This document shows positions 2,178 to 27,512 of a DNA stretch of 59,105 nucleotides, piece by piece. Both the position numbers and the translations under genes were made by a program. Every line of letters starts with the position of its first letter. Position 1 is the stretch's first letter. The stretch covers positions 10,760 through 69,864 of the forward strand of contig CAZHYS010000004.1 in NCBI GenBank assembly GCA_964536975.1, in the 5' to 3' direction. The notes under the pieces were generated by a model. The model had not been told where the DNA came from, did not search any database, and worked only from the letters and a program-made list of their open reading frames with translations. This stretch comes from an uncultured Gammaproteobacteria bacterium (lineage in GTDB: Bacteria > Patescibacteriota > Patescibacteriia > 2-01-FULL-39-33).

Positions 2178-2807
2178 GTGTTTGTGGATAATCTTTTGGA
2201 AAATAAAGGCTTGAATTTGGATGAGTTTGATTATAATGGCAGAAATCATAAATCCAAGATAAAAGCAATCGGCGAATTTGTTTGGGAAATGGCCAAGGTG
2301 GCGATAATCTCCTTGGTGATTATCTTGCCGATTAGGTATTTTTTAATTCAGCCGTTTTATGTCAAGGGCGCTTCCATGGAGCCGAATTTTTATGATCATG
2401 AATATTTGATTATTGATGAGATAAGTTATCGATTTGGCGTTCCGGGGCGAGGGGATATTGTGGTTTTCAAATACCCCAAGGATCCGGATCAGTATTTTAT
2501 CAAACGGGTGATTGGCCTGCCGGGCGAGACGGTGGAAGTAAAGAATGATCAAGTTTTGATTGATGGCCAACCACTGGCAGAAAATTATTTGTCTGAAGGC
2601 GTGTCTACTCGGGTGTCGGTTGGCGGATATGAAAAAGTGACATTAGAAGATGATGAGTATTTCCTTTTGGGAGACAATCGCGAACAGAGTCTTGATTCCC
2701 GGGTGTTCGGACCGGTTAAGGCGGATTTCATCATCGGTCGGACTTGGTTGCGCGGCTGGCCTTTTAATCGTTTGACTATTTTTTATAATCCTGATTATAA
2801 CATCTAA
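2178..2807 (+). CDS. lepB: Signal peptidase I
   Basis: TM helix, then catalytic Ser in GASMEPNF, RGDIVVF, catalytic Lys in FIKRVIGLPGE, and GDNR..SLDSR..G. The GTG start is uncertain. Confidence 0.96.
   Translation: MFVDNLLENKGLNLDEFDYNGRNHKSKIKAIGEFVWEMAKVAIISLVIILPIRYFLIQPFYVKGASMEPNFYDHEYLIIDEISYRFGVPGRGDIVVFKYPKDPDQYFIKRVIGLPGETVEVKNDQVLIDGQPLAENYLSEGVSTRVSVGGYEKVTLEDDEYFLLGDNREQSLDSRVFGPVKADFIIGRTWLRGWPFNRLTIFYNPDYNI
2183..2191 (-). promoter_or_regulatory. Perfect DnaA box (TTATCCACA on - strand)
   Basis: Plus strand reads TGTGGATAA at the lepB 5' end. A single 9-mer can occur by chance. Confidence 0.3.
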
Positions 2808-4254: not shown

Positions 4255-4488
4255 GTGGCAGAAGTAAAAAGGAAGAAAGGAGAGACGTTTGAGGCGTTAG
4301 CGCGAAGATTCAATAAAAAAGTGCAGCAGAGCGGACGGCTGATTCAATCCAGGAAAATCCGTTATCATGAATCCAGGAAAAATAAAACCGCGGTCAGAGC
4401 CGCCGCCGCCCGTCGGGACGAGATCAACAAAAAACGAGAATATTTGAAAAAAATAGGCAAATTAGTTGAAGAATCTCCCCGTCGATAA
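4255..4488 (+). CDS. rpsU: 30S ribosomal protein bS21
   Basis: EVKRKKGETFEALARRFNKKVQQSG pattern; located next to yqeY as in the conserved cluster. Confidence 0.9.
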   Translation: MAEVKRKKGETFEALARRFNKKVQQSGRLIQSRKIRYHESRKNKTAVRAAAARRDEINKKREYLKKIGKLVEESPRR

Positions 4489-4507
4489 GAATAACAAATA
4501 ATCGAAA

Positions 4508-4990: not shown

Positions 4991-7936
4991 ATGCGCTTAA
5001 CTTCTTTTTCATTAAGGAAGAACAATTATTACAGAAAAACCGCCAACCTGCTCTTTTGGGGCATGGTTTTGGTGGTTTTTTTGTTTTTATTGCCGGCCGT
5101 GGCCATGGCCGAAACTGGTCCGTTGGAAAATTATGGTTTGGAGGCCGCTTCAGAATTTGGTCTTGGTTCAGCCGGATTAGTAGAAACTATTACTAGAATC
5201 ATCCAAGTAATTTTAGGGGTCTTGGGAATTTTGGCGGTTTTATTGATTCTGTACGCCGGTTATATTTGGATGACTGCCGGGGGCGACGGCGCTAAGGTAG
5301 AAAAAGCGAAAAAAGTAATAATTAACGCCACAATTGGCTTGGTGATTATTTTTTCCGCTTTTGCGATAGTTTCTTTTGTCATCAGTCAGCTGTGGGGTGG
5401 CAATGGCGAATCTAGCGGCGGTCCTCATCCCGGCGGTTATGATGATTTATCGCGCTGGGGCATTGGTGCTGGTCCGATTCAGAGCGTCTATCCGGCGCCG
5501 AACCAGCGCGATGTGCCGATAAATACTTGGATTGCAGTCACTTTTAAAGAAGAAGTTGTCCCGGCCAGTATTTGTAATGTCGGTGAAGTCGGGGAAAACA
5601 ATAAATGCGATGGCGATACCATGCTGAATATTGACATTTGTAAGCTCGGCGCTGACAATTTTTGTGAAACAGGAACAGATTTTTCTACCGACAAATTTGT
5701 TGGCTCTACCGTTTTTCAAACCGCCGATGCCAAAACCTTCGTAATCACGCCAAAAATTTATCTTGGCTTGGAAGATCGTCAGGACCGGGAATTTATGGTT
5801 ACCCTCAAAGAAGGAATTTCCCGCGCTGCTGACGGAGAGCCAATTCTGGAGAGGTTGGTTAGTCGGCAATTTACCTGGTCGTTTTTTACTAATGGCGAAT
5901 TGGATCTTGACCCGCCGGAAGTTCTTAGCGCTACCGGAGGAGTCTCGCCCGCGCCGGATGACAGCGCGGATAGCTATAGCGCCGCTTCTAATCCGACCCC
6001 GACTGTTTTTACTTATCAAATTTCCGATCAGACAAACATAATTTCTGAAGTTGCCGCTGCCTTTACTCAGCCGGCGGCCTTGGTTGTTGGTTCACCATCA
6101 GCCACGATTTCTGGAAATTACGGCGGTTCGGCTAGCGGTTTAGTAACGGTGACCATTGGTCCAAGCGGCGATACAGTCTCAGTTGATTGGCCATCAGGCA
6201 TGCAAGACTACGGCGGGTCTTATGGTGGCGGACAGATAGTCAACATCGGTCCTTATGGTTTGACTTTTTCTTTGGCGTCAGTAGCAACTGCGGGAAACTC
6301 CTGGCAATTTTCTGTTACCGCTTATCGAGCCGGAGATTATATTGAACTTTTGGCCGGCTCTTCCTCGGTAAAAAAGTATTTATTCGGCCGGGAAATTATC
6401 ATAGGCGCCACCGCGGCGGCTACCACTGCCAACATCACTTCCGCGATTATTAATCAGAGCGGCGATATTTTTACCGCCGAAGGGACCAATATGGTTGCTA
6501 CTAGAGAGACTGGAGAAAATAGCGTTAGATATTCATTGAAATTTATTTTTTCCGGTTCGGTGCCGTATGTATTAGAAAAAGACGATGGCTTAAGCTCCAC
6601 CCAAACCAGGACGACGGTCGGAAGACCCGATGCTTATCGTAATCAATTATTTGAAATAGAGTTTAATGAACCAATCAACCCCATTGCCATTGATAATATC
6701 GTCGTTAAGTATGATCGCAATTCTGATGGTGATTTTGACGATTCGGAAGATATTTTAAGCGATATTTGGATGGAGATGTCCAGTGATTATCGGACGATTG
6801 GTTTGCGCGGGTCAATAGAATGCGGGGTTAATACCTGTGGCGAAAGAATTTATTGCTGGCCGATGCGTGATGGCGCTTCTGATAGTGGCGCTTCCACTCA
6901 ATATCAAGTGGAAATTTCCGCCAACACTCTAATGGATTGCAGTGACCCTCGTTGTGCTCAATGGCAAGGAAGCTGTGTTGGCGGTAGTGATAACCGGTGT
7001 GCCCGTGATATTTACGGCAAAACCGTTTTTTATCCCGGCGTTAATTCCAACCTAAGTACAATTGACGGCATCATTGATTTAGCCGGGAACTCCTTCAATG
7101 GCAGTTTTGATTCTTATGAGGAAAACGGCAAGGCATATGGTTTGGCCAACGGACCAAAGAGTTTTTATGATCTAAATCTGTCAAATCCATTATTCAATCC
7201 TTCAAATCCGGAGCAGGGAGGTTTTGGCGACAATTTCCGTTGGAGTTTTTGGGTGTCCAGCGACGTTGATCGCCAAGCGCCTCTAATAAAAGGAATCGGA
7301 CCGGAGAGTATGATCGGCGGCGCCATGACGGCTGATTTTGATCAAAGCGTTGATGTTTCTTTTGACCGGTTAATGCGAAGCGCGACTTTAAAGCCCGGTT
7401 GGAATTACGGTTCAAAAGATGACGAAAAAACCAGAACGACCCGCTATTTGGCGCTTAGCACTTTGACTTCCGGCGCCAACGCAGTCGGTTTTTGGATTAA
7501 TAAAGAAAATTACGACGAGAACAATGATCGCTGGCCTGACTATACTGTCGCTTCCATTGGCCATCATGTTTTGGATGAATATATTAGTTATGCTCCACTG
7601 GCAGGTTCGGGAATAGAATCAATTACCCAGAACTGTTTTTTGCCTAGCGCCGGTCCGGAAGATGCCGGGATAGGAGTTTGCGAATATACTGGCGAAGAAG
7701 CAAAGACCGGCTGCGTTGGCGTCCATTTGCCCAACCCGGCTTCTTATGGTTATTTAAATTGCAATGAAATAGCTGATGCGTCTGTTTGCACCAATCCAGA
7801 TTTTACCTGTCAGCCGCTATATGCCGGAGCCAGCGAGGAGGTCTCCGGTAGCTGGGTGATTACCAGAGATCATCCGTCAGCTGATCCGGCTACCGGTCGA
7901 ACCGGTTGTTGTTTTGGCAAGTGCCAGGAACAATAA
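4991..7936 (+). CDS. 981-aa surface protein: signal peptide, VirB2/TrbC-like (T4SS_pilin) module, SbsA/Big_5-type Ig-like domains, Cys-rich segments
   Basis: PAVAMA|E SPase I site; two-TM pilin module GYIWMTAGGD..KVEKAKKVI.NATIGLVII; Ig-like repeats (VYPAPNQRDVP..WIAVTFKE...FTWSFFT; IEFNEPINP; VSFDRLM). Confidence 0.8.
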   Translation: MRLTSFSLRKNNYYRKTANLLFWGMVLVVFLFLLPAVAMAETGPLENYGLEAASEFGLGSAGLVETITRIIQVILGVLGILAVLLILYAGYIWMTAGGDGAKVEKAKKVIINATIGLVIIFSAFAIVSFVISQLWGGNGESSGGPHPGGYDDLSRWGIGAGPIQSVYPAPNQRDVPINTWIAVTFKEEVVPASICNVGEVGENNKCDGDTMLNIDICKLGADNFCETGTDFSTDKFVGSTVFQTADAKTFVITPKIYLGLEDRQDREFMVTLKEGISRAADGEPILERLVSRQFTWSFFTNGELDLDPPEVLSATGGVSPAPDDSADSYSAASNPTPTVFTYQISDQTNIISEVAAAFTQPAALVVGSPSATISGNYGGSASGLVTVTIGPSGDTVSVDWPSGMQDYGGSYGGGQIVNIGPYGLTFSLASVATAGNSWQFSVTAYRAGDYIELLAGSSSVKKYLFGREIIIGATAAATTANITSAIINQSGDIFTAEGTNMVATRETGENSVRYSLKFIFSGSVPYVLEKDDGLSSTQTRTTVGRPDAYRNQLFEIEFNEPINPIAIDNIVVKYDRNSDGDFDDSEDILSDIWMEMSSDYRTIGLRGSIECGVNTCGERIYCWPMRDGASDSGASTQYQVEISANTLMDCSDPRCAQWQGSCVGGSDNRCARDIYGKTVFYPGVNSNLSTIDGIIDLAGNSFNGSFDSYEENGKAYGLANGPKSFYDLNLSNPLFNPSNPEQGGFGDNFRWSFWVSSDVDRQAPLIKGIGPESMIGGAMTADFDQSVDVSFDRLMRSATLKPGWNYGSKDDEKTRTTRYLALSTLTSGANAVGFWINKENYDENNDRWPDYTVASIGHHVLDEYISYAPLAGSGIESITQNCFLPSAGPEDAGIGVCEYTGEEAKTGCVGVHLPNPASYGYLNCNEIADASVCTNPDFTCQPLYAGASEEVSGSWVITRDHPSADPATGRTGCCFGKCQEQ

Positions 7937-7941
7937 AATAA

Positions 7942-10900
7942 ATGAAAAATTTAAATAAAAAAAATAAAAGATTGACTGGACTGGCGGTTTTGCTGGTAGT
8001 GTTTATTGCGGTTCTCTATTTTATCGTTCCAGCCGCTCTGGCGGATGATGGCAGTCTGGAGAATTACGGCCTGGACGCCGCGTCAGGATTCGGTCTTGGC
8101 TCAGCCGGATTAGTGGAAACAATAGGCAATATCATTAAGATATTTCTTGGCTTACTTGGAATTTTGGCGGTTTTATTAGTCTGCTATGGCGGATATTTGT
8201 GGATGACTGCTTCCGGCGATTCCGCTCAAATTGAGAAGGCAAAGAAAATAATTATTGCCGCCGTTATTGGCCTGGTCATTATTTTTTCCGCTTTTGCCAT
8301 TGCTAGCTTTGTCATCAATCAGATTTCCAACGCTACTGGCGCTGATGGCGGCGATGGTGGCGGTGGTACCAATCCCCCTACTCCTTGGGAATTAAATAGC
8401 AAATATTCTTATATCGGCGGTGTTAAGGATGAGACGATTGGCGAGGACGGTTGGTCAAGAAGTATCGGCTGGAATTATGCCGGTGATTTAAGCATTCCCG
8501 CCAGTGCCGGTCTGGAGACTAAAGGTTATGCCAAAGATACAAATAATACAATCGGAACAATGGAGTTTCATGCCACCCCCGATTCGGGTAGTGGCTTTAG
8601 TCTGATTAGTAATTTTAACATTCCTACCGATCGCAATGTCATTATTGATGTGTACGCGCCTTGGGATACTTCCGCTCTTAATGTTGGCGCTAATCCCCTG
8701 GCCAAGATAATGGTGTCGGCGGCCAGTGACAACTTTGAATCAAAGGCGGTCAGTACTATCGTCCGACCGATTCACTGCTTTAATAATATCCAAGATGTGG
8801 CTAGCGGCGAAACCGGTGTTGATTGCGGCGGCGAGTGCGGCGCTTGCGCCGGCGCTCCCTGCGACGCTGATACTGCCACTCCCGTCTGCGACGCTGATAA
8901 TTCCGTTTGTGCCAATGGAGTTTGTGATATTGATGCTGGCTGTATTTGTGCTCAGCTGCCAGAAATTCTTTATATTTCTCCGGCCAGCGATCCAAACAAT
9001 GACACCAATTATGACGATCCTTCCACCTGGGACGATGACGTCGCTAATGGCGCGCCCGGAAATTACATTACCATTTGGGGCAGATATTTCGGCGATGAGC
9101 CAGGTGAAGTAAGGTTTAATGATCAGTTAGCTGATTTAACTCTTAAAGATGGTTGCGATGATACTTGGAATTACTATCAGATAGTCGTAGAAGTGCCTAA
9201 TTTATCTGCTGGTGATTATAATGTCCAAGTTTTCAATGAATACGGCCTAGGGAGTAATGCCAAGATTTTTACTATCAATAATATCAATAGGCCGGGAATT
9301 TGCAGCGCTTATAATTTGACCAAATATAATTCTTCCGCGATCAAAGTCAGTTCTGGCAAGGATGGAGAAGAAGTCGCTGCCATTGGTAATAGTTTTCCGA
9401 CTACCGATGCGGCCGGAGATTTCTTTTGGTATTTCAGCACTCGGACTTTTGATAATGCGAGTCAGACTTGGTCCTATAATCTTGTTGAACACAACAATCA
9501 AAACACGGCCTGGAATTGGGATGGCGATAATAATGCTAAAGATTATGTCCCGACCAATCGGCGCGGCCGGAGTAGTATCAGGGTTTATAATATTGGCAGC
9601 AGTCAATACAGTAATTATTTCAAATTTTTAGTCAGTCCGGGAGCAGCCGGTGATCCTTGCGGTTATGATAGCGGTTTATGCTCGTTGGATTTTGACACTT
9701 GCCAAGAGGGATTATCTTGTAGCGGTGAAACTTGTGCCTGTCAGGAAACGCCGAATATCTGCGGTGATAATCTATTGGGTTCTCAGGAGTCTTGCGATAT
9801 TATAAATGGGAGCTACCGTTTCCATGAAAATAAAGCGTTATGCAGTGATTATAATCTGGGCGCCGGCCAGGTCAGTTGTACTAATAACTGCCAACTGGAC
9901 ATTTCCAAATGCGAGTTTTCTGGTGAGCTGGCCGCGCCAGCCAGCCAGTCAATTTATACTTGGTATTTTTTCACTGGTTATGACGATGATCCCCAGCCAT
10001 ATGTGATTGAGGATTGCAGTCGCAATCGGGAGTGCTCTGTCGGAGCAAAATTGCCAAGTCCCACGCCGTGGAGCGAAGGTTGGAACAAACAGAATTATCC
10101 TTATTATGATATTGATAATCCTTTATCTTGTCTGGATGTGATTGTGTCTGCCAGATTTAATGTTCAAATGGATCCCAAGACAATCAATAGTGATAATATA
10201 AAAGTTTTGAAGTGCGATAATATTGAAGGGAGCAATTGTATTGAAGTAGCTGGCAATTTACGTTTGGTCAGCGACAATAGTGGCAAAGAAGATGACTATT
10301 TCCGTTTTTCGCCCGCCAATCCTTTGTCACCGAATTCTTGGTATAAGGTAGTTTTGCGTAACGGTCTTAATAGCTTGACCGGTAAGAGTTTCCGTTTTAA
10401 TGAGAGCGACGCCGAAAAAGTGGATCATCGTCATTGTCAGATAGCCGGTGTTAATGGTGGCAGTTATAACATTACTGACTCGGTTTATTGCTGGAATTTC
10501 CAAACCCGGTCAAGCAATGATTGCGAACCGGGTTGCGCGGAGTGTTCTCCTGATCCCCATACAATGTATTGGCCGCTATCTACTACAGGTTACTTGGCTG
10601 ACATTGATAGTGATGACAACGTTTGTTTACTGCTTGATCCAGCTGATTATAGTTGGAATTGGAGTACTGATAAATCAGCCAAGCTCGGTATTAATGAGTC
10701 AAACGAGTCTGCCACGGCGGTCGCTATCGGTGAAACTATTTATGACAAGCCAAATCCTTATGCGTCATTATTCGCTGAGATGGTTGGTTATGGCAAAAAG
10801 GATTTTTGTCGCGCTTATAATGATTTTACCAATCCAATCGTAATGGAGGACGCTTCCTGTTCCAGTGGCAATATTCAAAGTCCGACTCCTTGGAAGGATT

Positions 10901-13900
10901 CTCGCGATGCCTGTGTCAATGCGATGATCTCAGCCCGTTTTAGCAGAAATATGGCCGACACAACCATAAATTATTCCAATATTCTTGTCAAAAAATGCAA
11001 TCAGGGTCAGGGTAGCGCCTTTGATAAAAGCGCTTGCGAAGAGGTGGCTTATGATGATTTAAGAATCTTTGATTATAGCCATGAATGGTCGGAAATTACC
11101 CAATCATATTTAACCTCGGAGGAAATGCAGAATTTAATTTCCGATTTGCCGGAAGGATTTATTGTTTCACCGGCCGGTGGAAATCTAGAAGCGAATACCT
11201 GGTATCAGGTGGTTATTTTAGGCGGAGAGAATGGTGTTAGGGGAGCGACGAAAAACGAAGATCCTGAGGGTCGATTGGAAAAGCCAAACTGCGACGGCGA
11301 TGGCGATGGATCCTTTGATGATTATTGTTGGAAATTTCAAACCAGTCGGGAGAATTGCGATATTAACAGCGTAAACGTCGCGCCGCGAAATTTATTTATG
11401 CGCTATACGGACAGCAGTCAGGTTTATAATGCTTTTCCTCAGGCTGCCAATTGTAACTTGCTTAATCCTTATAGTTATATTTGGAATTGGCGTTCCTTAA
11501 TTTCTCTAAATGATGATGTTGGCGAAAATGATTCCGCGGGCGGCAGCGGCATATCGGTCGCTTCTATTTGCAGTGAGTCTGCCAGTTCATGTCAGATTGA
11601 CGATTATTCATCAGATCTGACCAGTCCTAAGGTTAAGGTTTTTGCTCAGGCGGAAGGAGAGACGAATATCAAGGCGCGGGCAGTCAATACTCGCGATGTC
11701 GATTGTTCTTGGAACGACGCGACCTGCGGGGATAAATGGAATTACGGAAAATTACAAGTCGGCTTTGGCGATTTGCGAGTCATTGATTATTCTCCCAGTA
11801 ATACCAAATGTTCTGATGCCGCCATTAGCATTAGCTTCAATATTGACGCCGATGTCGCGACAATAAAACCGAATGATAATCTCTTATTATATAAAGTCGG
11901 ATCATTTGAAAATGGTTCCGAAAGTTTGGTTTTGCAGGAATTAAGAGAAGACATTTATCCCGATTTCAATTATTCATCTTCGGTCAAAATTTCGCCGGCT
12001 GCCACGCTATCAACTGGTACTTATCGGGTAGTATTAAAAGGAGGAACAAAAGAAAATGGCGGCGTTATCGCTTGGAATGGGAAACGATTGGCAGATCTCA
12101 ATTACAATACTTCATCAGATGGCGCGGCTGAAGAATGCGAACCAGAACTTTACCCTTGGAATCAAAAATCAGGAACATGTTCTTCGGCAAGTTGTCTTTT
12201 AATCGGCAATTTGTGTGGCACCGATTCAGCCGAATGCGTTGCCGGATCTATTGATTGCGATAATGAGTGCCATAATTTAGGCAATAATAATGTTGCTTCT
12301 TGCGGCAATAAGGTAGTAGAGAAGGGAGAGGATTGCGATGATGGCAATATCAATAACAATGATGGCTGCAGTAGCGAGTGTCTGTGGGAGGGGTCAAATC
12401 AACGGTGGGGTTCTTTATGTTTGAACGGTGTCAAGGAATACGGTGAGGAGTGTGATTTTGGATCCCAGCAAGAGAACGAGGCAAAGGGTTGCAATTCTTC
12501 TTGTCTGTTTGAAACTGATCCGGAAGGCGACGCCGGCAGTCAGCCGTCAATGTCTGTGTGTGGCAATAATCGAATTGAGGCTGGCGAGGATTGCGATGAT
12601 GGCAATACTTCAAGCGGCGATGGCTGCAAAGGTACGGAAACAGGGCGAGGCTGCCTTAATGAGGGCTCGGATAAATGTTCGCTAACCAATAAGTCCGATT
12701 GTTGCGGCAATAAACAGCTGGAAACCGGCCAGCCGGATAGTTTTTCCTGGACTTTTGATGTTGATCAGCGGGAAGAGGTTTGCTATCCGGGAGCAACTAT
12801 AGACATTAATCCCTGTCCCAACGCGATTTGGCGGGTGATCTTTCCTCAAGGCATTGGCACCGCCAAAGTTACAATTCAGCAGGGATCAAACAGCGAGTCC
12901 AATCCTGATACCACAAAATGCGTCGCTGCGTCCGGACCGCAGAGTTTCTGGCAATCAGCCGTCAAAAAAATTAAAATTGCAATCAAGAAGGCATTTGGTC
13001 AGACAGTTTCCGCTGCCAATTATTGGTGCGCGGTTTCCGAAAAAAATTATAATTTTGACAACTTTGACAATGTTCATATTGACGCTGACGGTTTTGAAAT
13101 GATTGGTTATAAAAATGAAAACCAAGCTGCAATAGTCAACTACATCAAGGATGAAAGCTGGTCTTTAGGAGGAGAATATCGGATTGTGGTGGATTATGAC
13201 AATTATGGTTTATCTACCAAAACGATTACCAAGACGCTGACTGTTTTCTCTCCATCCAGCGGATACCTCAATAGTGACGGTAATTGCGCCTTGACCGGCG
13301 AAATAGTCAATATCTGGCCGGTCGGCGAGGAAAAATATACTGATAATTTTTTCTGCGATGACGATGATTGTGGCCAGGATGATTATGACAGGTATCTGAA
13401 AGATCAAAGCCCGGCGGCTGGCAATAACCATCTTTATCGCGCCTGGGCGATTAATGATAAAATTGAATTAAACAAAAAATATTTAATCAAGCCACAGGAA
13501 GGATTTATTTGGCAAATCGCGGCCACTATACCGTCCGGCCGTTTGAATCTAAGCAATTCAGCAGTTTCAGATACGGCTTATTTGGGTGATCAATGGTTGA
13601 CTTTGACTAAATCAGATTTGGACATTTATGATGCCAGCGGTTGGGCAAGTCTAAGAGTGGTAGCGGCTGAGAATTCGGATAACTATACCGAAAAGGACGT
13701 TGATATTAATGTTTTCTTGTGTGATAATCCGTGGCCGTATCCGGCATTTTTTCCTTTTGTAGATCAAGCCAATAATTGCACTTATTATAATGGCGGTACT
13801 TGCCTAAATACTAATTTTAAAACTTACTATTGTCGGGACAAAGGCGAAAGCGGTCCCCATGATGATTTACCCGCCATCGGCAACTTTGATTATGTTAGTA

Positions 13901-15561
13901 GAAAGATGGATGTCTCAGTCGTCGGTTTGAAAAAGAATATTTTGAAAGAGTTCTTCTTCCCGCGACTTTCTCCAGAAAAATTAAAAGACGATGCCAATTT
14001 TATGGACGGCAATATTCTGGGGTCGGGTCGTTTGATGCTGGTTGATGGTAAAGTCGGCAAAGCCGGAAAGTTTAATCTTGGCGTCGGAGAAGCGGCAATA
14101 GAAGTGCCGGGATTTTGGAACTATATTGATTCGGATGAAGGCAAGGTTGATAATTATGACGAACCAATCACCATTAGTGCCTGGGTAAAGGCGGGGGCGG
14201 CGGATCGGGTGGATTTCTGGGCTGATGGAAACTTCAATGAGGGATCGGCATATTACAATCGGACAACGGGGCAATTTATGATGAGTATGCATAATGTCGG
14301 TGCCAGTTTCAGTGTCGCTCCGGAAGATTTCGATAATTGGCATTTCATCGCCATGTCGGTTCCGGGGTTTGACCATGTTGGGGAGACGGCCAGTTTTTAC
14401 TTTGATGATAAATTGCAAACCAAGATTCAGGTGGCGCGCAATGACGAAATTTCCAGTGGCCCCGAGGATAGCTTACACTTGGGCTATAATCTTGGGGCGG
14501 GTATTTTTGATGGCGCAATTGACGAACTCAAAATACACAAAGCAATTCTGTCAAAAGACGAAATATATAATGGTTCTTCTCGGGGGTTGGTCGCTTATTA
14601 TTCCTTTGATAATCTATACGGCCAGACTGATAATTCTTCCGATACCATAGGCATTCGGGTAGCTCAGAACAATTATCATTATTCTCCGGCTTTGTGGTAT
14701 TTTGGTAATTTTGATACTAATCAGCAGGGCAACCCGAAAGAATCAGTGGTTGACAATTATCCAGCCATTGAAGAAGGACGCACTACTTATGTTGATGCCG
14801 CCGACCTTAACAATAATCGAGAGAAGATTTTTACCGATATCTATTTAGTTTCTTACAGTGAGGGAGCCGACAATGTTACTAAAGAAATTTATTCCTTGTT
14901 GGTTAAGTATTTAGGGTTCAATTTTGGCCACAGCGGAGAGGAAGATGGCGGCCTTATGGCAACCGGAGTTTGCAGCGGTAATGCCAATATAATATGCCGG
15001 ACAGACCGGGATTGCCAAGCGGAAAATTTTGGCTACTGCGACTCCACTAAGGCCAAGTTGACCAGAGACACTGTTCGTCTGGCTGACATTCAGGACGCGA
15101 ACTATCTATTGGAAACATATAAGTCCAAGAAACGTTGCAGTAATGATCAGTCGGTCTCGTGCTCCAATAACAGTCAGTGCTACGGAGGAGGGAGTTGCGG
15201 GGAATATTATCCTATTTTAAAGTCCGGCAGCTATGTCGTTGGGCGCAGCTTCAGCGTCTGGCCGTCATGGCAGGAGACGTTAGCTAAATTTTTGGGTTCG
15301 GTTTTGCCGACAGATCCGCTCAATCAATTGATTGGTTGCAGTAGTCCTTACGACGCCGTTACTTGCTGGAATGAAGTTACCAAATCAATGCAGTGTCCGA
15401 CTGGCGCTAACATCTATTCTTATTATGATAAAAATCAGGCGGGGACTTATTCGGGATTTAAAACAATCAATGAGTACTCTAATGACTGGGACAATGATTT
15501 TGATATTTTTACCGATTTGTCGTTGTTTAATTTTATTAACAGCGAGACGTGCCATCCATAA
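7942..15561 (+). CDS. 2539-aa giant surface protein: signal peptide, VirB2/TrbC-like pilin module, IPT/TIG, Big_5-like Ig domains, Myxococcus-type Cys-rich repeats, LamG-like domain, C-terminal type IV pilin/GspG-like domain
   Basis: PAALA|D site; pilin module; TIG motif GNYITIWGRYFG..PGEVRF; CGN..E.GEDCDDGN repeats; LamG motifs ITISAWVK, WHFIA, FDGAIDELKI; RDTVRLADI...YP...LPTDP. About 95 Cys by hand count. Confidence 0.82.
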   Translation: MKNLNKKNKRLTGLAVLLVVFIAVLYFIVPAALADDGSLENYGLDAASGFGLGSAGLVETIGNIIKIFLGLLGILAVLLVCYGGYLWMTASGDSAQIEKAKKIIIAAVIGLVIIFSAFAIASFVINQISNATGADGGDGGGGTNPPTPWELNSKYSYIGGVKDETIGEDGWSRSIGWNYAGDLSIPASAGLETKGYAKDTNNTIGTMEFHATPDSGSGFSLISNFNIPTDRNVIIDVYAPWDTSALNVGANPLAKIMVSAASDNFESKAVSTIVRPIHCFNNIQDVASGETGVDCGGECGACAGAPCDADTATPVCDADNSVCANGVCDIDAGCICAQLPEILYISPASDPNNDTNYDDPSTWDDDVANGAPGNYITIWGRYFGDEPGEVRFNDQLADLTLKDGCDDTWNYYQIVVEVPNLSAGDYNVQVFNEYGLGSNAKIFTINNINRPGICSAYNLTKYNSSAIKVSSGKDGEEVAAIGNSFPTTDAAGDFFWYFSTRTFDNASQTWSYNLVEHNNQNTAWNWDGDNNAKDYVPTNRRGRSSIRVYNIGSSQYSNYFKFLVSPGAAGDPCGYDSGLCSLDFDTCQEGLSCSGETCACQETPNICGDNLLGSQESCDIINGSYRFHENKALCSDYNLGAGQVSCTNNCQLDISKCEFSGELAAPASQSIYTWYFFTGYDDDPQPYVIEDCSRNRECSVGAKLPSPTPWSEGWNKQNYPYYDIDNPLSCLDVIVSARFNVQMDPKTINSDNIKVLKCDNIEGSNCIEVAGNLRLVSDNSGKEDDYFRFSPANPLSPNSWYKVVLRNGLNSLTGKSFRFNESDAEKVDHRHCQIAGVNGGSYNITDSVYCWNFQTRSSNDCEPGCAECSPDPHTMYWPLSTTGYLADIDSDDNVCLLLDPADYSWNWSTDKSAKLGINESNESATAVAIGETIYDKPNPYASLFAEMVGYGKKDFCRAYNDFTNPIVMEDASCSSGNIQSPTPWKDSRDACVNAMISARFSRNMADTTINYSNILVKKCNQGQGSAFDKSACEEVAYDDLRIFDYSHEWSEITQSYLTSEEMQNLISDLPEGFIVSPAGGNLEANTWYQVVILGGENGVRGATKNEDPEGRLEKPNCDGDGDGSFDDYCWKFQTSRENCDINSVNVAPRNLFMRYTDSSQVYNAFPQAANCNLLNPYSYIWNWRSLISLNDDVGENDSAGGSGISVASICSESASSCQIDDYSSDLTSPKVKVFAQAEGETNIKARAVNTRDVDCSWNDATCGDKWNYGKLQVGFGDLRVIDYSPSNTKCSDAAISISFNIDADVATIKPNDNLLLYKVGSFENGSESLVLQELREDIYPDFNYSSSVKISPAATLSTGTYRVVLKGGTKENGGVIAWNGKRLADLNYNTSSDGAAEECEPELYPWNQKSGTCSSASCLLIGNLCGTDSAECVAGSIDCDNECHNLGNNNVASCGNKVVEKGEDCDDGNINNNDGCSSECLWEGSNQRWGSLCLNGVKEYGEECDFGSQQENEAKGCNSSCLFETDPEGDAGSQPSMSVCGNNRIEAGEDCDDGNTSSGDGCKGTETGRGCLNEGSDKCSLTNKSDCCGNKQLETGQPDSFSWTFDVDQREEVCYPGATIDINPCPNAIWRVIFPQGIGTAKVTIQQGSNSESNPDTTKCVAASGPQSFWQSAVKKIKIAIKKAFGQTVSAANYWCAVSEKNYNFDNFDNVHIDADGFEMIGYKNENQAAIVNYIKDESWSLGGEYRIVVDYDNYGLSTKTITKTLTVFSPSSGYLNSDGNCALTGEIVNIWPVGEEKYTDNFFCDDDDCGQDDYDRYLKDQSPAAGNNHLYRAWAINDKIELNKKYLIKPQEGFIWQIAATIPSGRLNLSNSAVSDTAYLGDQWLTLTKSDLDIYDASGWASLRVVAAENSDNYTEKDVDINVFLCDNPWPYPAFFPFVDQANNCTYYNGGTCLNTNFKTYYCRDKGESGPHDDLPAIGNFDYVSRKMDVSVVGLKKNILKEFFFPRLSPEKLKDDANFMDGNILGSGRLMLVDGKVGKAGKFNLGVGEAAIEVPGFWNYIDSDEGKVDNYDEPITISAWVKAGAADRVDFWADGNFNEGSAYYNRTTGQFMMSMHNVGASFSVAPEDFDNWHFIAMSVPGFDHVGETASFYFDDKLQTKIQVARNDEISSGPEDSLHLGYNLGAGIFDGAIDELKIHKAILSKDEIYNGSSRGLVAYYSFDNLYGQTDNSSDTIGIRVAQNNYHYSPALWYFGNFDTNQQGNPKESVVDNYPAIEEGRTTYVDAADLNNNREKIFTDIYLVSYSEGADNVTKEIYSLLVKYLGFNFGHSGEEDGGLMATGVCSGNANIICRTDRDCQAENFGYCDSTKAKLTRDTVRLADIQDANYLLETYKSKKRCSNDQSVSCSNNSQCYGGGSCGEYYPILKSGSYVVGRSFSVWPSWQETLAKFLGSVLPTDPLNQLIGCSSPYDAVTCWNEVTKSMQCPTGANIYSYYDKNQAGTYSGFKTINEYSNDWDNDFDIFTDLSLFNFINSETCHP
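12298..12730 (+). repeat. Tandem Myxococcus-type cysteine-rich repeats (DUF4215/TIGR02232-like)
   Basis: CGNKVVEKGEDCDDGNINNNDGCSSEC, CLNGVKEYGEECD, CGNNRIEAGEDCDDGNTSSGDGC and CGNKQLE. Perfect 22-nt direct repeat gaggattgcgatgatggcaata at 12328-12349 and 12586-12607. Confidence 0.85.
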
Positions 15562-15592
15562 TCAGTAATAATTATTTTAATAAAGAATTTTT

Positions 15593-16297
15593 ATGTTTGA
15601 TAATCAACCTTTAAATCAAAATTCTCCGGTTAATAACGACAATCAGCCATGGCCGCCACAGGTTGAGGATATTTTTTCCAAAACCGATTCTAATGATCAA
15701 GGGCAAGTAGTCGGCCCTTCCAGACCGGGGCAGATCAATCAGCTGCCGTCAGCCATGTTTCCGGCAAACATGGAAGAGGATTTATTTGGGGGAAAAAGAA
15801 TAAATTTTTCAAAAATAATTTTGATGTTGGTCGGCGTGGTAATAGTCGGTGGAGTAGCTTTTGGCGGTTGGTGGATTTTTAATAATACTCTAATCGTCAA
15901 AAACAACAATCAGCCGACTAGCGGCGACTCCCCGTCAAATCAAAATCAGGCCAGTCAGCCCCCAACCAACAACGAAAACCCCGCGGCCGATATTAATGAA
16001 AACAACGATAATAGCGATAACCAGGATCAATCATCGGAGGCGCCTATCCAGGCATTAGATAGTGATAGTGACGGCCTTAGTGATTCGCGCGAAAATGACT
16101 TGGGCACTGACCCAAAAAATGCCGATTCTGACAATGACGGCCTCACTGATAGGGCAGAAGTGGAAATTTATAACACCGACCCCTTGAATGTTGATTCCGA
16201 TAGTGACGGTTATACAGACGGCCGGGAGGTCACTAACGGCTATGACCCGGCTCGACCAGGCAATGCCAGGCTTTACGATGTGCCAGTTAGTAATTAA
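15593..16297 (+). CDS. Bitopic membrane protein with three bacterial TSP3-type Ca-binding repeats
   Basis: TM segment IILMLVGVVIVGGVAFGGWWIF; N/Q/S/P-rich linker; DSDSDGLSD, DSDNDGLTD and DSDSDGYTD...GYDP. Confidence 0.85.
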   Translation: MFDNQPLNQNSPVNNDNQPWPPQVEDIFSKTDSNDQGQVVGPSRPGQINQLPSAMFPANMEEDLFGGKRINFSKIILMLVGVVIVGGVAFGGWWIFNNTLIVKNNNQPTSGDSPSNQNQASQPPTNNENPAADINENNDNSDNQDQSSEAPIQALDSDSDGLSDSRENDLGTDPKNADSDNDGLTDRAEVEIYNTDPLNVDSDSDGYTDGREVTNGYDPARPGNARLYDVPVSN

Positions 16298-16377
16298 AGT
16301 GAAAAAGCTTTTTCCGGTCGGATTTCGCATAGTCGTGCTTTTCGGCCGAAGGGAAAAATAAATAATTCTTTATCAAT

Positions 16378-17391
16378 ATGGAAGAAAAAAATCGTCCGAT
16401 GACTAAAATTAATTCTCAGCATGACAGCCAAGATGACATCTATGTGATGCCTCAAAAATTTAATCCCCAAAAAACAAAAGTGGCTACCGGAAGGGTCTTA
16501 TTGGCGGTAGTGGCTTTATTGTTATTAGCTTTAATCGTTGTTGCCGGATATTTTCTTTATAATTCTTGGCAAGAAAGGAAAACTGTCAGCACGCCGGAGG
16601 TTACCAGCAGTAAAACAACCAATAATTCAACCGTTGTCAATCAGACGGATCTGTTAATAGCAACAAGCACTTTATCGGGAGTAGACGCTACTTCCACCAC
16701 CGAGGAAATTGCTACTACCACCGAATCGGAATTTCCAACCCCAGGATCAAATACTGCAATCACTCTAATCGCTGCTGCCGACGCCGACAATGACGGCCTC
16801 ACTGATATTGAAGAAAGCGTCATTGGAACATCTGCCACAAAATTTGACTCTGATGGTGATGGCTTCGGGGACAAAAAAGAGCTTGATGACGGTTATAGCC
16901 CGGTCAAGTCTGGCGATGCAAAATTAGTAGACGATATTTTTATTAAAAAGTTCTATACTGATTTTACGGAAGATAATTTTATGATTATGTCCATAAATGA
17001 CTGGGCAGTCAATTCTATTGTCTCCATCAAGCAGGTTCGGATTACTGCCAGTACCGGCGAGGTGATAAAAATTTCGGTTTCGGATAATAGAGAGGGTGTT
17101 TCTCCTTTGAATTTATATTTGCAAAACAATCCAATGGCATCAATCGCTGATTTGGAAAGCTTGGATGCCAACGGCTTAACGGGTTTAATTTCGGCCGACG
17201 GTTTAAAAGCTTATCTAACCAATCAAAGCAGAAGCAAATTCTATATTATTGAATATCTGCCGGAAGGGGAAACCGATCTTTTTCGTTATCCTAATATTTT
17301 CAGAATGATAGTAAACAGCTTGGAGCCGGGCGCAAAGCCGGTCCAGATCAATCCCACCGTTCCTTCTACTACCACTAATTCGGCTTTGTAG
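16378..17391 (+). CDS. Bitopic membrane protein with two TSP3-type repeats and a C-terminal globular domain
   Basis: DDIYVMP motif, TM helix, Thr/Ser-rich linker, DADNDGLTD.EE..IGT and DSDGDGFGD..E..DGYSP. Confidence 0.82.
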   Translation: MEEKNRPMTKINSQHDSQDDIYVMPQKFNPQKTKVATGRVLLAVVALLLLALIVVAGYFLYNSWQERKTVSTPEVTSSKTTNNSTVVNQTDLLIATSTLSGVDATSTTEEIATTTESEFPTPGSNTAITLIAAADADNDGLTDIEESVIGTSATKFDSDGDGFGDKKELDDGYSPVKSGDAKLVDDIFIKKFYTDFTEDNFMIMSINDWAVNSIVSIKQVRITASTGEVIKISVSDNREGVSPLNLYLQNNPMASIADLESLDANGLTGLISADGLKAYLTNQSRSKFYIIEYLPEGETDLFRYPNIFRMIVNSLEPGAKPVQINPTVPSTTTNSAL

Positions 17392-19208: not shown

Positions 19209-20096
19209 ATGCCGAGAAAAGAAAATATAAATAAAAAAGAAGAATCATTATTGGCCGAAGATCGGGTTGTTCGTCGATCGGTTAGCAGCCAGAAGCCTCG
19301 AACTAGAGTGCCAAGGAAACCGGCAACCATCAGACGACCAGAAGATGTTGCTTTAGCCGCCAAAAATAGGATTTCTTCCCCGGGATTACCAATAAAAAGA
19401 GAAGCATTCGATTATCGTGATAGCAAGAAAGTTAGGGGCGGACGTAATATCTTTATAATACCTGTTTTGATTTTAGTGATAGTCATCTTAGCGGGAGTCT
19501 TAGTGATACAGAATTGCGATAAATGTCTGGACTTAGTTGAAAACGGTCAAGGTAATAATTTTGAGAACTATCAGATTCCTCTCGGTATTCAGGTCAACAA
19601 CGAACAAGCCGCCGATCCGACTGCCGGCTGGTCAGTATTTGAAGAAAAACAAAAAAGATTTCAGTTTAAATACCCGGCCGCATGGAATGTTTCGGAAAGC
19701 GACGGAGGCATTTCCATTGCCACTGACTTGGCAACAACCACGGTTTTGATTGTAGCCGATAAGACAGACAAAAATTTAACTGACTATCTCAAGGATATTG
19801 ATACTAAAAGAAAAGAACAATCGGAAGTAAAAAAGGAGGCGCCTCTGACATTTGGCGATTCCCAAGGGTTATTAAGGCAGGAACGCCTTATTGGTTCTCA
19901 ATACGATCAGGTCAATGCTTTTTTGCCGGTAAAAGAAGGAATCCTTCTCATTTCCTTGACCACCCCTCAAATTACCGAAGAGATTTCCAATACTTATAAT
20001 TTATTTTTGAATAATTTCCAGCTTAATTCCGATTATCAGTTGCTCCAAGCGGTAAATAGCACCACCACAGCCACTACTACTACGCCACAATCATAA
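19209..20096 (+). CDS. Bitopic membrane protein: basic N-terminus, one TM helix, external PsbP/DcrB-like domain
   Basis: TM segment IFIIPVLILVIVILAGVLVI; motif TAGWSVF...RFQFKYPAAWNV. Confidence 0.7.
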   Translation: MPRKENINKKEESLLAEDRVVRRSVSSQKPRTRVPRKPATIRRPEDVALAAKNRISSPGLPIKREAFDYRDSKKVRGGRNIFIIPVLILVIVILAGVLVIQNCDKCLDLVENGQGNNFENYQIPLGIQVNNEQAADPTAGWSVFEEKQKRFQFKYPAAWNVSESDGGISIATDLATTTVLIVADKTDKNLTDYLKDIDTKRKEQSEVKKEAPLTFGDSQGLLRQERLIGSQYDQVNAFLPVKEGILLISLTTPQITEEISNTYNLFLNNFQLNSDYQLLQAVNSTTTATTTTPQS

Positions 20097-26003: not shown

Positions 26004-27512
26004 ATGATTCGGTCGCTGGATAAATTCGTCGGTTCTCGGTCGCAATTTTTTTGGGGATCGCTAGTCGCTTTTATTTGCGGTGTCGCTGTCGGCTTCTATC
26101 AGCCGATCGGACACTTTTTTATTTTTTGCGCGACTTTGTCCCTATCCAGCGGGTTAATTTTTTTCTGGCGCAGCAAGAAAACGCGGGTAATTATCATTTT
26201 GGCATTGTTTTTTCTTTCTGGCGTCTGGCGATTTCAGTTAAGCCGTCCCGATTTCAGCGCCGAGACGAAAATTTATCATTACAACGGCCAGATGGTTGAG
26301 TTTTCGGCGCTGATAAAAAACGTTGATCGCCGGATTAATAGCCAGAAGATTACTTTGCAAGCCAAGTCGCTCTCGGTTGCCAGCGGCCAAAAAGATGCGA
26401 ATGGAAATGTGTTAGCGACTATTGGCTTATACCCGCGGTATTATCGCGGCCAGACGATTCAGCTTAAATGCCGGCTGTTGGCGCCGGAAAAATACGAAGA
26501 ATTCGACTATCCCCGTTACTTGTCGCGCTATCAGATTTACTCTCTATGCTATCGGCCGGAAATCACTTTGCTCGGCCAGAATCAATTAAGCCAGGGGGTT
26601 TACTTGGCGCTGGACAGATTTTACGGACGATTTAATTCTTCCATTCCCGATCCGCCCGCTTCAATTTTGTCGGCGATGATTTTCGGACTTCGGCAAGGAA
26701 TTCCCGACGACATTTCCGAGGATTTTTCCCGAACGGGCATCAGCCATATCATTTCCATCTCCGGCATGCACATTGTCATTATCCTAATGATTATTAATTT
26801 TATTTTGATTGGCTGCGGCTTTGTCCGCCAGCGCGCTTTTTGGCTGGCAGTGGCGGCGATTTCAGTTTATATAATATTTATCGGCGCCCCCGCTTCGGCG
26901 GTTCGCTCGGCGATAATGGGTGTGTTGCTACTACTATCGGCGCAGATCGGCCGATTGAATTACTCTTCCAACGCTCTGGTTTTTGCCGCCTTTGTTATGA
27001 TTTTATTCAATCCTTGGCTGTTGATCGCGGACATCGGTTTTCAACTGTCTTTTCTTGCTTCTGCCGGAATCATCTATTTTCACCCCTTTTTCAAGAATAA
27101 ATTCCGAAAGATCGGAGAAAAGACTTTTCTCGGCCTGGCTGATATTTTGAGCGTCACCGTATCGGCTCAATTAATGACTTTGCCTCTTATCATTTTTTAT
27201 TTCGGCGGGTTTTCTCCGATCAGTCTGTTGGCCAATCTGCTCATTCTGCCTTTTATTCCGCTGATGATGATTTTGGGCTTGGTTAATTCTTTGGTCTCTT
27301 TGGCGTCATTGACTTTGGGCCGGTTGTTCGGGGTGTTCAGCTGGCTGGCGACGGAGTATATGGTCTTGATGTCAAATTGGCTGTCAAAAATTCCCGGCGG
27401 CTATGTCACGTTGGGCGGAATGAATTTTATCCTGATGCTGGCCGGCTATTTTTTGTTGGTTTGTTTTATCTTTAAAATAAAAAGGGCGCAAATCAATGTT
27501 GATAAATTTTAA
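26004..27512 (+). CDS. comEC: ComEC/Rec2 competence protein, membrane and OB part
   Basis: Multiple TM helices; GISHIISISGMHI, SAVRSAIM, NP..L.ADIGFQLSF, SAQLMTLP, LLANLLILP. Confidence 0.93.
   Translation: MIRSLDKFVGSRSQFFWGSLVAFICGVAVGFYQPIGHFFIFCATLSLSSGLIFFWRSKKTRVIIILALFFLSGVWRFQLSRPDFSAETKIYHYNGQMVEFSALIKNVDRRINSQKITLQAKSLSVASGQKDANGNVLATIGLYPRYYRGQTIQLKCRLLAPEKYEEFDYPRYLSRYQIYSLCYRPEITLLGQNQLSQGVYLALDRFYGRFNSSIPDPPASILSAMIFGLRQGIPDDISEDFSRTGISHIISISGMHIVIILMIINFILIGCGFVRQRAFWLAVAAISVYIIFIGAPASAVRSAIMGVLLLLSAQIGRLNYSSNALVFAAFVMILFNPWLLIADIGFQLSFLASAGIIYFHPFFKNKFRKIGEKTFLGLADILSVTVSAQLMTLPLIIFYFGGFSPISLLANLLILPFIPLMMILGLVNSLVSLASLTLGRLFGVFSWLATEYMVLMSNWLSKIPGGYVTLGGMNFILMLAGYFLLVCFIFKIKRAQINVDKF

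Follow-up and report, generated by a model that had tools for sequence, protein, structure and literature searches.

A four-gene cassette in housekeeping DNA

Four co-directional genes, here called A, B, C and D, occupy positions 4991 to 17391 of the window, that is, the whole 59,105-nucleotide (nt) stretch of DNA that was analysed (contig CAZHYS010000004.1 of assembly GCA_964536975.1, forward strand, positions 10,760 to 69,864), filed as an uncultured Gammaproteobacteria bacterium and placed by GTDB in the Patescibacteriota. A sequence-only reading of this DNA had described two giant surface proteins that begin with pilin-like modules, followed by two membrane proteins with putative calcium-binding repeats. 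All four open reading frames (ORFs) are found on the plus strand where that reading drew them, and every descriptive point it made was confirmed. The cassette is chromosomally fixed in the class ABY1, and it is not a conjugation locus. Its genes are as follows.

4991..7936, plus strand: gene A, 981 amino acids (aa), conserved and putatively pilin-anchored protein read as immunoglobulin (Ig)-like (ORF)
7942..15561, plus strand: gene B, 2539 aa, variable giant protein, putatively pilin-anchored (ORF)
15593..16297, plus strand: gene C, 234 aa, predicted bitopic TSP3 protein (PF18884, 67.1 bits; hydropathy)
16378..17391, plus strand: gene D, 337 aa, predicted bitopic TSP3 protein (hydropathy, motifs and a custom hidden Markov model, HMM)

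The genes are closely packed, with gaps of 5 nt between A and B, 31 nt between B and C and 80 nt between C and D, and they are set just as tightly into housekeeping DNA, 21 nt after yqeY and 9 nt before ybeY, in the order lepB-hisS-rpsU-yqeY / A-B-C-D / ybeY-ftsA-ftsZ. The window holds two pilin modules only, those of A and B, and, as had been noticed before, none of its larger ORFs is a VirB4, VirB11 or TraF gene; VirB6 is likewise absent from them. A tblastn search with the module against 72,556 plasmids and 50,697 phages gave no match. With such flanks and no plasmid or phage counterpart, the cassette belongs to the core chromosome, and an origin in a mobile element was rejected. Hence one half of the proposal that the genes form a non-conjugative appendage or surface-display system is plausible, since the setting is chromosomal, non-mobile and without adjacent type IV secretion system (T4SS) genes; the parts of that proposal that made the pilin module an export tag and tied lepB to the cassette fared less well, for reasons given with the signal peptides.

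Pilin modules of the VirB2 family in A and B

The N-terminal features of A and B, with lepB, which lies outside the cassette and is given for context, are these.

4991..5110, plus strand: A signal peptide, aa 1-40, predicted signal peptidase I site AMA/E, where cleavage would occur (sequence, hydropathy)
5111..5395, plus strand: A VirB2-type pilin module, aa 41-135 (PF18895, hhalign, AlphaFold2 hairpin)
5396..5470, plus strand: A Gly-rich tether, aa 136-160, WGGNGESSGGPHPGG (sequence)
7942..8043, plus strand: B signal peptide, aa 1-34, predicted site ALA/D (sequence, hydropathy)
8044..8325, plus strand: B VirB2-type pilin module, aa 35-128 (PF18895, 42.6 bits)
2178..2807, plus strand: lepB, signal peptidase I (Peptidase_S26, 168 bits)

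Both proteins open with an AxA signal, A38-M-A40/E41 in A and A32-L-A34/D35 in B, and across 45 A orthologues the alanine at -1 (A40) has a conservation of at least 90%. In A the module then passes from a conserved N-terminal segment through helix 1 and a basic loop, GGDGAKVEKAKK, into helix 2. Hydropathy windows lie at residues 16-45, 62-98 and 106-137 of A and at 8-39, 56-90 and 97-130 of B; the AlphaFold2 (AF2) model of A has helices at 63-95 and 100-135, arranged as a hairpin, and tether residues 135-142 are disordered in it, with predicted local distance difference test (pLDDT) values below 50. After helix 2 comes the cargo, ~845 aa in A and ~2410 aa in B. Homology between the two proteins is limited to the first ~155 residues (57% identity), the remainder being unrelated, and the modules are 75% identical over their core and 71-74.5% at the DNA level.

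Several comparisons support the assignment of this N-terminal module to the VirB2 pilin family rather than to generic anchors, as the sequence-only reading had supposed from the signals and the paired transmembrane (TM) segments. PF18895 (T4SS_pilin; cut-off 26.6 bits) is exceeded in A (39.7 bits) and B (42.6 bits) over profile positions 3-71 of 71. PF04956 (TrbC/VirB2) is covered over nearly its whole length at 26.6 and 20.4 bits, below its cut-off of 27.9, and NF045849, a pilin-like conjugal transfer protein of Mycoplasma integrative and conjugative elements, scores 36.2 and 33 bits against a cut-off of 40. An hhalign profile built from the A and B modules aligned with thirteen free pilins matched Agrobacterium fabrum C58 VirB2 over 68 columns with 35% identity (E=1.3e-3, at a probability of only 18%), in a register that spans the whole mature pilin, including the W-M motif that ends helix 1. 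The module is moreover 50-61% identical to free-standing pilins of 118-170 aa, and its conservation pattern, YxGxxWMTAxGD...KAKK, equals theirs. A Protein Data Bank (PDB) sequence search with the module profile returned only chance matches to G-protein-coupled receptor TM segments, and a Foldseek search of the PDB with full-length A returned no pilin, the hairpin being paired with helices of FlgL and FlgK. One could hold that the hairpin is a mere two-TM anchor and that inherited synteny keeps the four genes side by side without their making up a system, a notion to which the sub-threshold PF04956 scores and the 18% hhalign probability would lend themselves; with PF18895 above its cut-off in both proteins, we regard it as very improbable, and evidence from the relatives bears on it further.

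The basic GDGAKVEKAKK loop between the helices points to a topology with the N-terminus out, the loop in and the C-terminus out, which would put the cargo outside the cell. LepB is the likely processing enzyme of the two signals, and its gene does lie 2.2 kb upstream on the same strand, as had been said; with hisS, rpsU and yqeY in between, its link to the cassette may amount to no more than synteny. Nor is there need for the pilin module to serve as an export tag, because an ordinary Sec/LepB signal precedes it. Neither A nor B has a prepilin-peptidase motif, and no LPXTG motif with a C-terminal hydrophobic tail was found in them, the nearest approach being LPSAG at residue 884 of A, with no later TM segment.

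Concerted evolution of the A and B modules

The strongest evidence that A and B cooperate through their pilin modules is the concerted evolution of those modules, which the sequence-only reading had not remarked. Across 68 genomes, the A and B modules of one genome have a median identity of 0.66 (range 0.41-0.80), compared with between-genome medians of 0.51 for A-A, 0.50 for B-B and 0.49 for A-B, and in only 8% of ordered genome pairs is the orthologue closer than the paralogue from the same genome. Because the pair, with its distinct ectodomains, is found across the sampled ABY1 genomes, the duplication that gave rise to A and B most likely predates their divergence, and independent evolution from that point would leave A(i)-B(i) no closer than A(i)-A(j). 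In addition, as long as the A ectodomains are at most about 40% identical, A(i)-B(j) identity runs parallel to A(i)-A(j); it falls behind only where the relatives are closer.

Two trivial causes were considered. The within-genome excess is unchanged for genome pairs that differ by less than 1% in GC content, and base composition was rejected on that ground. Recent gene conversion as the main cause was likewise rejected: the A and B modules have a median DNA identity of 0.67, with no pair above 0.85, and codons are identical at only 55% of identical residues. Protein-level co-adaptation, or a conversion that is old and slow, is the more likely explanation of the likeness. Columns that covary are concentrated in three parts, the mature N-terminal segment (GSAGLVETI), helix 1 and the outer half of helix 2. 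Given this concerted evolution within genomes, the A and B hairpins most likely pack together or on a shared partner.

Conservation of the cassette across ABY1

The scan for relatives drew on one genome per GTDB species and gave at least 80 loci with near-full-length A, which were annotated with local HMMs. Full-length orthologues of A fall into about 45 clusters with 27-70% identity, the named ones from Buchananbacteria, Falkowbacteria and Parcubacteria; in a published table Buchananbacteria, Falkowbacteria and the cassette-bearing "Parcubacteria group" genome GW2011_GWA2_38_13 all belong to the GTDB class ABY1. The gene order is the same in nine contexts around A or D orthologues, and it recurs in at least 80 or so species-level genomes of the Buchanan- and Falkowbacteria within ABY1. 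A pilin-B gene directly follows A in 67 of the 76 informative loci among those listed, the gap having a median of 20 nt; of the 61 listed loci with at least 5 kb of upstream sequence, 55 have lepB and hisS upstream of A; and where B is complete and enough downstream DNA is present, at least one TSP3 bitopic protein follows in 16 of 16 listed loci and at least two in 14 of them. The whole block is visible in a 38-kb locus that reads lytR-lepB-hisS-rpsU-yqeY-A(1030 aa)-B(6217 aa)-1093-aa protein-TSP3-TSP3-D-like-ybeY-ftsA-ftsZ. The proposed co-conservation of the four genes thus holds across ABY1.

The cassette also keeps together where its neighbours change: yqeY is upstream in only 20 of 61 listed loci, relA is inserted on the opposite strand in locus L007, and some relatives have an extra gene between B and C. 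TSP3 repeats are found inside B itself in L001/L018 and in L008, which ties C and D functionally to B. These observations speak against a set of genes held side by side by synteny around a generic anchor, as does the homogenisation of the modules within genomes far beyond the orthologue level. In favour of that notion, the flanking housekeeping genes are equally syntenic, and 4 of the 80 listed loci (L032, L046, L050 and L064) have an A-like gene without B. The context of these four loci differs, in that either a recA-like gene or a gene for a membrane protein of 722-740 aa stands downstream, and their A-like genes probably represent a second paralogue family.

Many cassette-bearing records among the metagenome-assembled genomes are titled "uncultured Gammaproteobacteria", and L067 and L042 are titled "Nanoarchaeia archaeon" and "Saccharimonadales"; such titles probably reflect mislabelled submissions or mis-binned contigs.

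Ectodomains of A and B

Beyond the modules, the two proteins carry the following.

5471..7933, plus strand: A ectodomain, mostly beta-strand and read as an Ig-like chain, with a Cys-rich end and GCCFGxC motif (AF2, Big_5)
9052..9261, plus strand: B TIG/IPT Ig-like domain (PF01833, 26.6 bits, cut-off 20.9)
10144..10386, plus strand: B Big_5 Ig-like domain (PF13205, 40.3 bits, cut-off 23.6)
12298..12630, plus strand: B Cys-rich acidic repeats, CGNxxxExGExCDDGN (TIGR02232, 51.3 bits; DUF4215 weak; 49-nt direct repeat)
14122..14565, plus strand: B LamG/ConA-like lectin-fold domain (PF13385, 35.3 bits with the whole protein and 42 with the fragment, cut-off 27.6)
14614..15558, plus strand: B conserved C-terminal domain, "Bcons", residues 2225-2539 (40-49% identity to orthologues)

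The Pfam check that had been suggested was run, and T4SS_pilin, Big_5, TIG, Laminin_G_3 and TSP3_bac all score above their cut-offs in the cassette, while DUF4215 is weak and TSP3_bac in D falls below.

The AF2 model of A, built with 45 orthologues, is confident (mean pLDDT 84, predicted TM-score 0.70) and mostly beta-strand from residue 163 to the end, which we read as a chain of Ig-like domains; Pfam finds Big_5 in it, there are 20 Cys residues, and the GCCFGxC motif is conserved, with invariant Cys residues. Conservation extends over the full length of the protein, with 48 invariant columns among the 45 orthologues. Foldseek puts the S-layer protein SbsC (4uic, E=5e-6) at the head of the matches to A; cadherins, Ig-superfamily receptors and staphylococcal MSCRAMMs come next, and the TM-scores are very low, at 0.09-0.12.

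The ectodomain of B, with 95 Cys residues, is of another character. Its orthologues range from ~1500 to 6217 aa in the same position and vary in domain content too, and the array of B may be the likelier ligand-binding part. Bcons is the best-conserved stretch, with 28 invariant columns, and in Falkowbacteria-type loci it is a separate protein of ~1000 aa with its own AxA signal peptide (for example at L047:18434-21349). A database search with Bcons returned 5 homologues only, a PDB profile search gave no match, Pfam gave little besides Cys-knot noise, and its AF2 model is poor (pLDDT 45). Its motif, KAKxTRDxKRLxDL...Y...YP...WPSWQxTL...LPxDPxN, is reminiscent of the latter half of helix 1 in type IV pilins and pseudopilins, and T2SSG (PF08334) matches weakly in 2 of 28 members (E=0.004-0.075); a pseudopilin-like nature of the domain is an unproven lead.

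It is against this background that a different role has to be weighed, in which A, with or without B, would be the main S-layer-like coat of ABY1 and serve envelope integrity, C and D being calcium-dependent anchors of the lattice. SbsC is after all the best structural match of A, and A is conserved over its full length, unlike a diversifying adhesin; the cassette has a core-genome place beside lytR-cpsA-psr, lepB and ftsA/ftsZ; and calcium dependence is common in S-layers. The TM-scores are so low, however, that the SbsC match reflects only the shared chain of Ig-like domains, Pfam gave neither an S-layer homology (SLH) domain nor another domain for S-layer anchoring in A or B, and the lectin-like and Cys-rich modules of B, with its 4-fold variation in length, look like ligand binding. 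A coat of this kind seems to us improbable.

The TSP3 proteins C and D

As had been described, two co-directional bitopic proteins with TSP3 motifs follow B. Three motifs were counted in C and two in D. C begins with a low-complexity segment (MFDNQ...), predicted to be cytoplasmic, and has a single TM helix at about aa 73-97 and three DxDxDGxxD/TSP3 repeats at aa 156-222 on the predicted extracellular side (PF18884, 67.1 bits, cut-off 25). D has one TM helix at about aa 39-61 and two exact DxDxDGxxD motifs, at aa 135 and 157; its Pfam TSP3 score of 13.6 bits is below the cut-off, a custom HMM of the TSP3 tail gives E=1.4e-12, and its orthologues are annotated with PF18884. Homologues of D form 14 clusters. 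These motifs predict calcium binding by both proteins. The last part of D is a domain with no fold assigned to it.

16933-17388, plus strand: D C-terminal domain, ~150 aa, fold unassigned, part of gene D

One TSP3 unit of C (16120-16159) is 85% identical over 40 nt to one of D (16776-16815), compared with 63% between the repeats within C, which hints at exchange between the two genes.

The wider pilin family and type IV secretion

Pilins that bear cargo are no local oddity. A search with the 100-aa module through 1.84 billion representative proteins returned 34,076 at E<=1e-3 and 5,591 at E<=1e-10, and the best 143 newly returned comprised 13 free pilins (118-171 aa, with identities to the module of up to 61%), 40 proteins in which 300-6100 aa of cargo come after an N-terminal module, and 86 "poly-pilins" with 2-16 tandem modules, in a ranking by total score that favours multi-module proteins. 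That 40 of these 143 representatives join an N-terminal module to cargo indicates that the arrangement is common. The largest poly-pilin, P0067, has 1775 aa and 16 modules (L092:10001-15328); it lies beside a gene for ribosomal protein L39e, which suggests that its contig is archaeal, and no T4SS gene was found on that contig within 10 kb upstream or within the 3.3 kb downstream to the contig end. P0162, a free pilin close to the module, is on a 4.9-kb contig that holds three pilin genes and is too short to show a T4SS.

Published work places VirB2-like pilins of Patescibacteria in a T4SS context. In the Saccharibacterium Southlakia epibionticum, the pilin array lies inside an essential T4SS cluster (PMC10633639; reviewed in PMC12857230). 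Its VirB2-like pilins are essential (PMC10633639; PMC12857230). A survey of 3,035 genomes with PF18895 found pilins in 1,948 assemblies, often in arrays of 2-11 genes near virB4, with a mean identity of 25% and a maximum of 54% (PMC12102498). In Paceibacteria co-cultures, proteins with a T4SS-pilin domain are among the genes with signal peptides that show the strongest expression (PMC10936435). When relatives were matched to the survey table by name, all four that could be matched and have an A-family gene were listed with VirB4, namely Buchananbacteria RIFCSPHIGHO2_02_FULL_39_17 (L074), Falkowbacteria GW2011_GWF2_43_32 (L055), GW2011_GWA2_38_13 (L078) and Falkowbacteria CG1_02_41_21 (L046), the last being one of the four loci in which A is not followed by B (PMC12102498). 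A T4SS ATPase may thus be available in trans: the absence of VirB4 stands for the window, and absence from the genome is not implied by it. In the survey's component rows for two ABY1 genomes, only matches to VirB4, TrsD and a type IV coupling protein (T4CP) profile and one distant VirB2 are listed, with no VirB6 or VirB3 in those rows; the Falkowbacteria genome of the two has one G_Tfc7 match in addition, and the rows give GW2011_GWF2_43_32 one VirB2 match that is not near virB4 (PMC12102498).

These data bear directly on the possibility that A and B are true T4SS pilus subunits, in which VirB4/TrsD would extract the hairpins and polymerise them, alone or with free pilins, into a fibre with the giant ectodomains set all along it or at the end; such a subunit would be a "modular conjugative-type pilin". 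The module does belong to the pilin family by profile and by its 50-61% identity to free pilins, its conservation is equal to theirs, the concerted evolution of A and B is what would be expected of co-polymerising subunits, and both the VirB4 listings and the essential role of pilins in a Saccharibacterium are in keeping with it. C-terminal peptide fusions to F pilin, moreover, are displayed on F pili. On the other hand, no T4SS gene was found within 10 kb, in the window or in ~90 related loci, and the T4SS set listed for the two ABY1 genomes lacks VirB6 and VirB3 in the rows concerned; cargo of 840-6200 aa per subunit would be sterically hard for a homopolymer, by an estimate from F-pilus geometry; and neither the sequence nor the fold searches of the PDB recovered a pilin. 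On balance we find pilus subunits of this kind rather unlikely. The more specific version, that the A and B hairpins co-polymerise, with or without small pilins, driven by a minimal VirB4/TrsD to give a non-conjugative fibre that displays adhesins, we would call unlikely.

Comparison with known systems

Like the VirB2, TrbC and TraA pilins, A and B have a cleavable signal (as predicted), two long hydrophobic helices, a short cytoplasmic loop and the T4SS_pilin profile. They differ in that the mature proteins would have 941 and 2505 aa, as against roughly 70-120 aa, in having no VirB4, VirB6 or other T4SS gene alongside, and in a loop that is longer and strongly basic (GDxxKVxKAKK). Moreover, T-pilin and TrbC are cyclised, which A and B, with their large C-terminal cargo, presumably cannot be.

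The VirB2-like arrays of Patescibacteria (PMC10633639; PMC12102498) share with A and B the phylum, PF18895, tandem genes and a non-conjugative setting without a relaxase. Those arrays are presented as pilin subunits, with no mention of C-terminal cargo, and lie mostly near virB4, whereas A and B carry giant ectodomains and lie far from virB4 in the company of TSP3 partners. Also, where array members have a mean identity of 25% and a maximum of 54%, A and B are 57% identical over the first 150 aa and 75% over the core.

A formal parallel is offered by the modular type IV pilins, in which a functional domain is grafted onto a pilin module, for example PilB and PilC of Streptococcus sanguinis. 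There too a filament or anchor module bears an adhesive or lectin module at its C-terminus, but the signal is of class III and the N-terminal helix single, in contrast to the Sec signal and two-helix hairpin of A and B. With MSCRAMMs, SiiE and SbsC, A and B share Ig-like chains and, by prediction, an extracellular position and likely calcium; unlike them, they would be anchored N-terminally and by a pilin-type module, with no LPXTG/sortase signal, type I secretion signal or SLH domain.

Each of the parts is known by itself: the patescibacterial pilin module, the adhesin domains of Ig-like and LamG type, and the TSP3 repeats. The literature searched yielded no account of VirB2-like pilins with cargo, of the cassette or of its TSP3 partners, and by that measure what is new is the fusion of a pilin module to giant cargo, the paired, co-evolving unit fixed with TSP3 partners in the ABY1 core genome, and the separation of the cassette from the T4SS locus.

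Flanking genes and other features of the window

On the 5' side the cassette is flanked by lytR-cpsA-psr (minus strand), lepB, hisS, rpsU (a small ORF at ~4255-4490) and yqeY, and on the 3' side by ybeY, ftsA, a 295-aa gene, ftsZ, nrdD/G, a release factor gene, comEC and ribosomal-protein operons. The 295-aa gene (19209-20096) stands in the same place in relatives and has no significant Pfam or NCBIfam match, PsbP being sub-threshold only. ComEC is split over two overlapping ORFs, 26004-27512 (DUF4131 and Competence) and 27496-28374 (metallo-beta-lactamase), and is split likewise in L006. In relative L005, nrdD has 1004 aa (L005:6670-9684) compared with 681 aa in the window, and may hold an intein or other insertion.

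Rfam gave no match in positions 1-24000, a hairpin between C and D is not significant (z=-1.7), and a promoter and terminator consensus scan of the locus was uninformative. Repeats are confined to the stretches that code for the two modules (297 nt, 71%), to the TSP3 units and to those of the Cys repeats, and on that basis diversity-generating or other long repeats were rejected.

A proposed membrane-held envelope or adhesion complex

The interpretation that we prefer, and to which we would give about an even chance, is that A, B, C and D together make up an envelope or adhesion complex, which paired VirB2-type hairpins would keep in the membrane and in which C and D would be partners dependent on calcium. 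A and B would be exported by Sec, and LepB would remove the AxA signal peptide. The VirB2-type hairpin would then stay in the cytoplasmic membrane with its N-terminus out, the KAKK loop in and its C-terminus out, as hydropathy, loop charge and the AF2 hairpin indicate, and the Gly-rich tether would present the cargo at the surface, a conserved Ig-like chain of ~840 aa in A and in B a lineage-variable array of ~2400 aa made up of TIG/Big_5 domains, Cys-rich repeats, LamG and the conserved C-terminal domain. The hairpins would pack on each other or on one shared partner, so that the module would act as a device for anchoring and oligomerisation. C and D would place their TSP3 repeats, predicted to bind calcium, on that side of the membrane too and would probably brace or organise the ectodomains, a role suggested by their strict co-occurrence and by the TSP3 repeats fused into B in relatives.

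A number of points weigh against this interpretation. Localisation, cleavage, calcium binding and the contacts among the four proteins are all predicted. Older, repeated gene conversion could give the observed likeness of the modules without physical contact. The conservation of the module, as good as that of free pilins, would fit a polymerising pilin equally, and the listing of VirB4 in all four matched relatives makes a T4SS-dependent step possible. Lastly, some A-like genes stand without B, and since the whole region is syntenic, lepB, hisS, ybeY and ftsA included, gene order alone is no proof of functional linkage.

What such a complex would bind is a further matter. Attachment to host cells by an episymbiont, as had been suggested for this locus, is speculation; by catalysed reporter deposition fluorescence in situ hybridisation (CARD-FISH), two targeted ABY1 families were unattached or on lake snow and not on host cells (PMC9166423).

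In any case, the cassette amounts to a natural experiment, in which a pilin module has been fused to cargo, placed in the core genome away from a T4SS and duplicated, and in which the two copies have been kept matched. It bears on what VirB2-like pilins, essential in the sole genetically tractable Patescibacterium, build in a monoderm that has no outer membrane, and the covarying residues offer concrete positions at which the coupling of A and B can be tested. If the hairpins co-polymerise, A and B would establish decorated pili of a new type: no "modular conjugative-type pilins" would precede them, and theirs would be the first T4SS pilus in a monoderm to bear cargo. This would also account for the wide radiation of the pilin module in Patescibacteria, to judge by the 34,076 representative proteins. 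If instead the module is a device for anchoring and oligomerisation, much of that radiation may concern surface architecture rather than secretion. Either way, A and B are strong candidates for the major surface proteins of ABY1.

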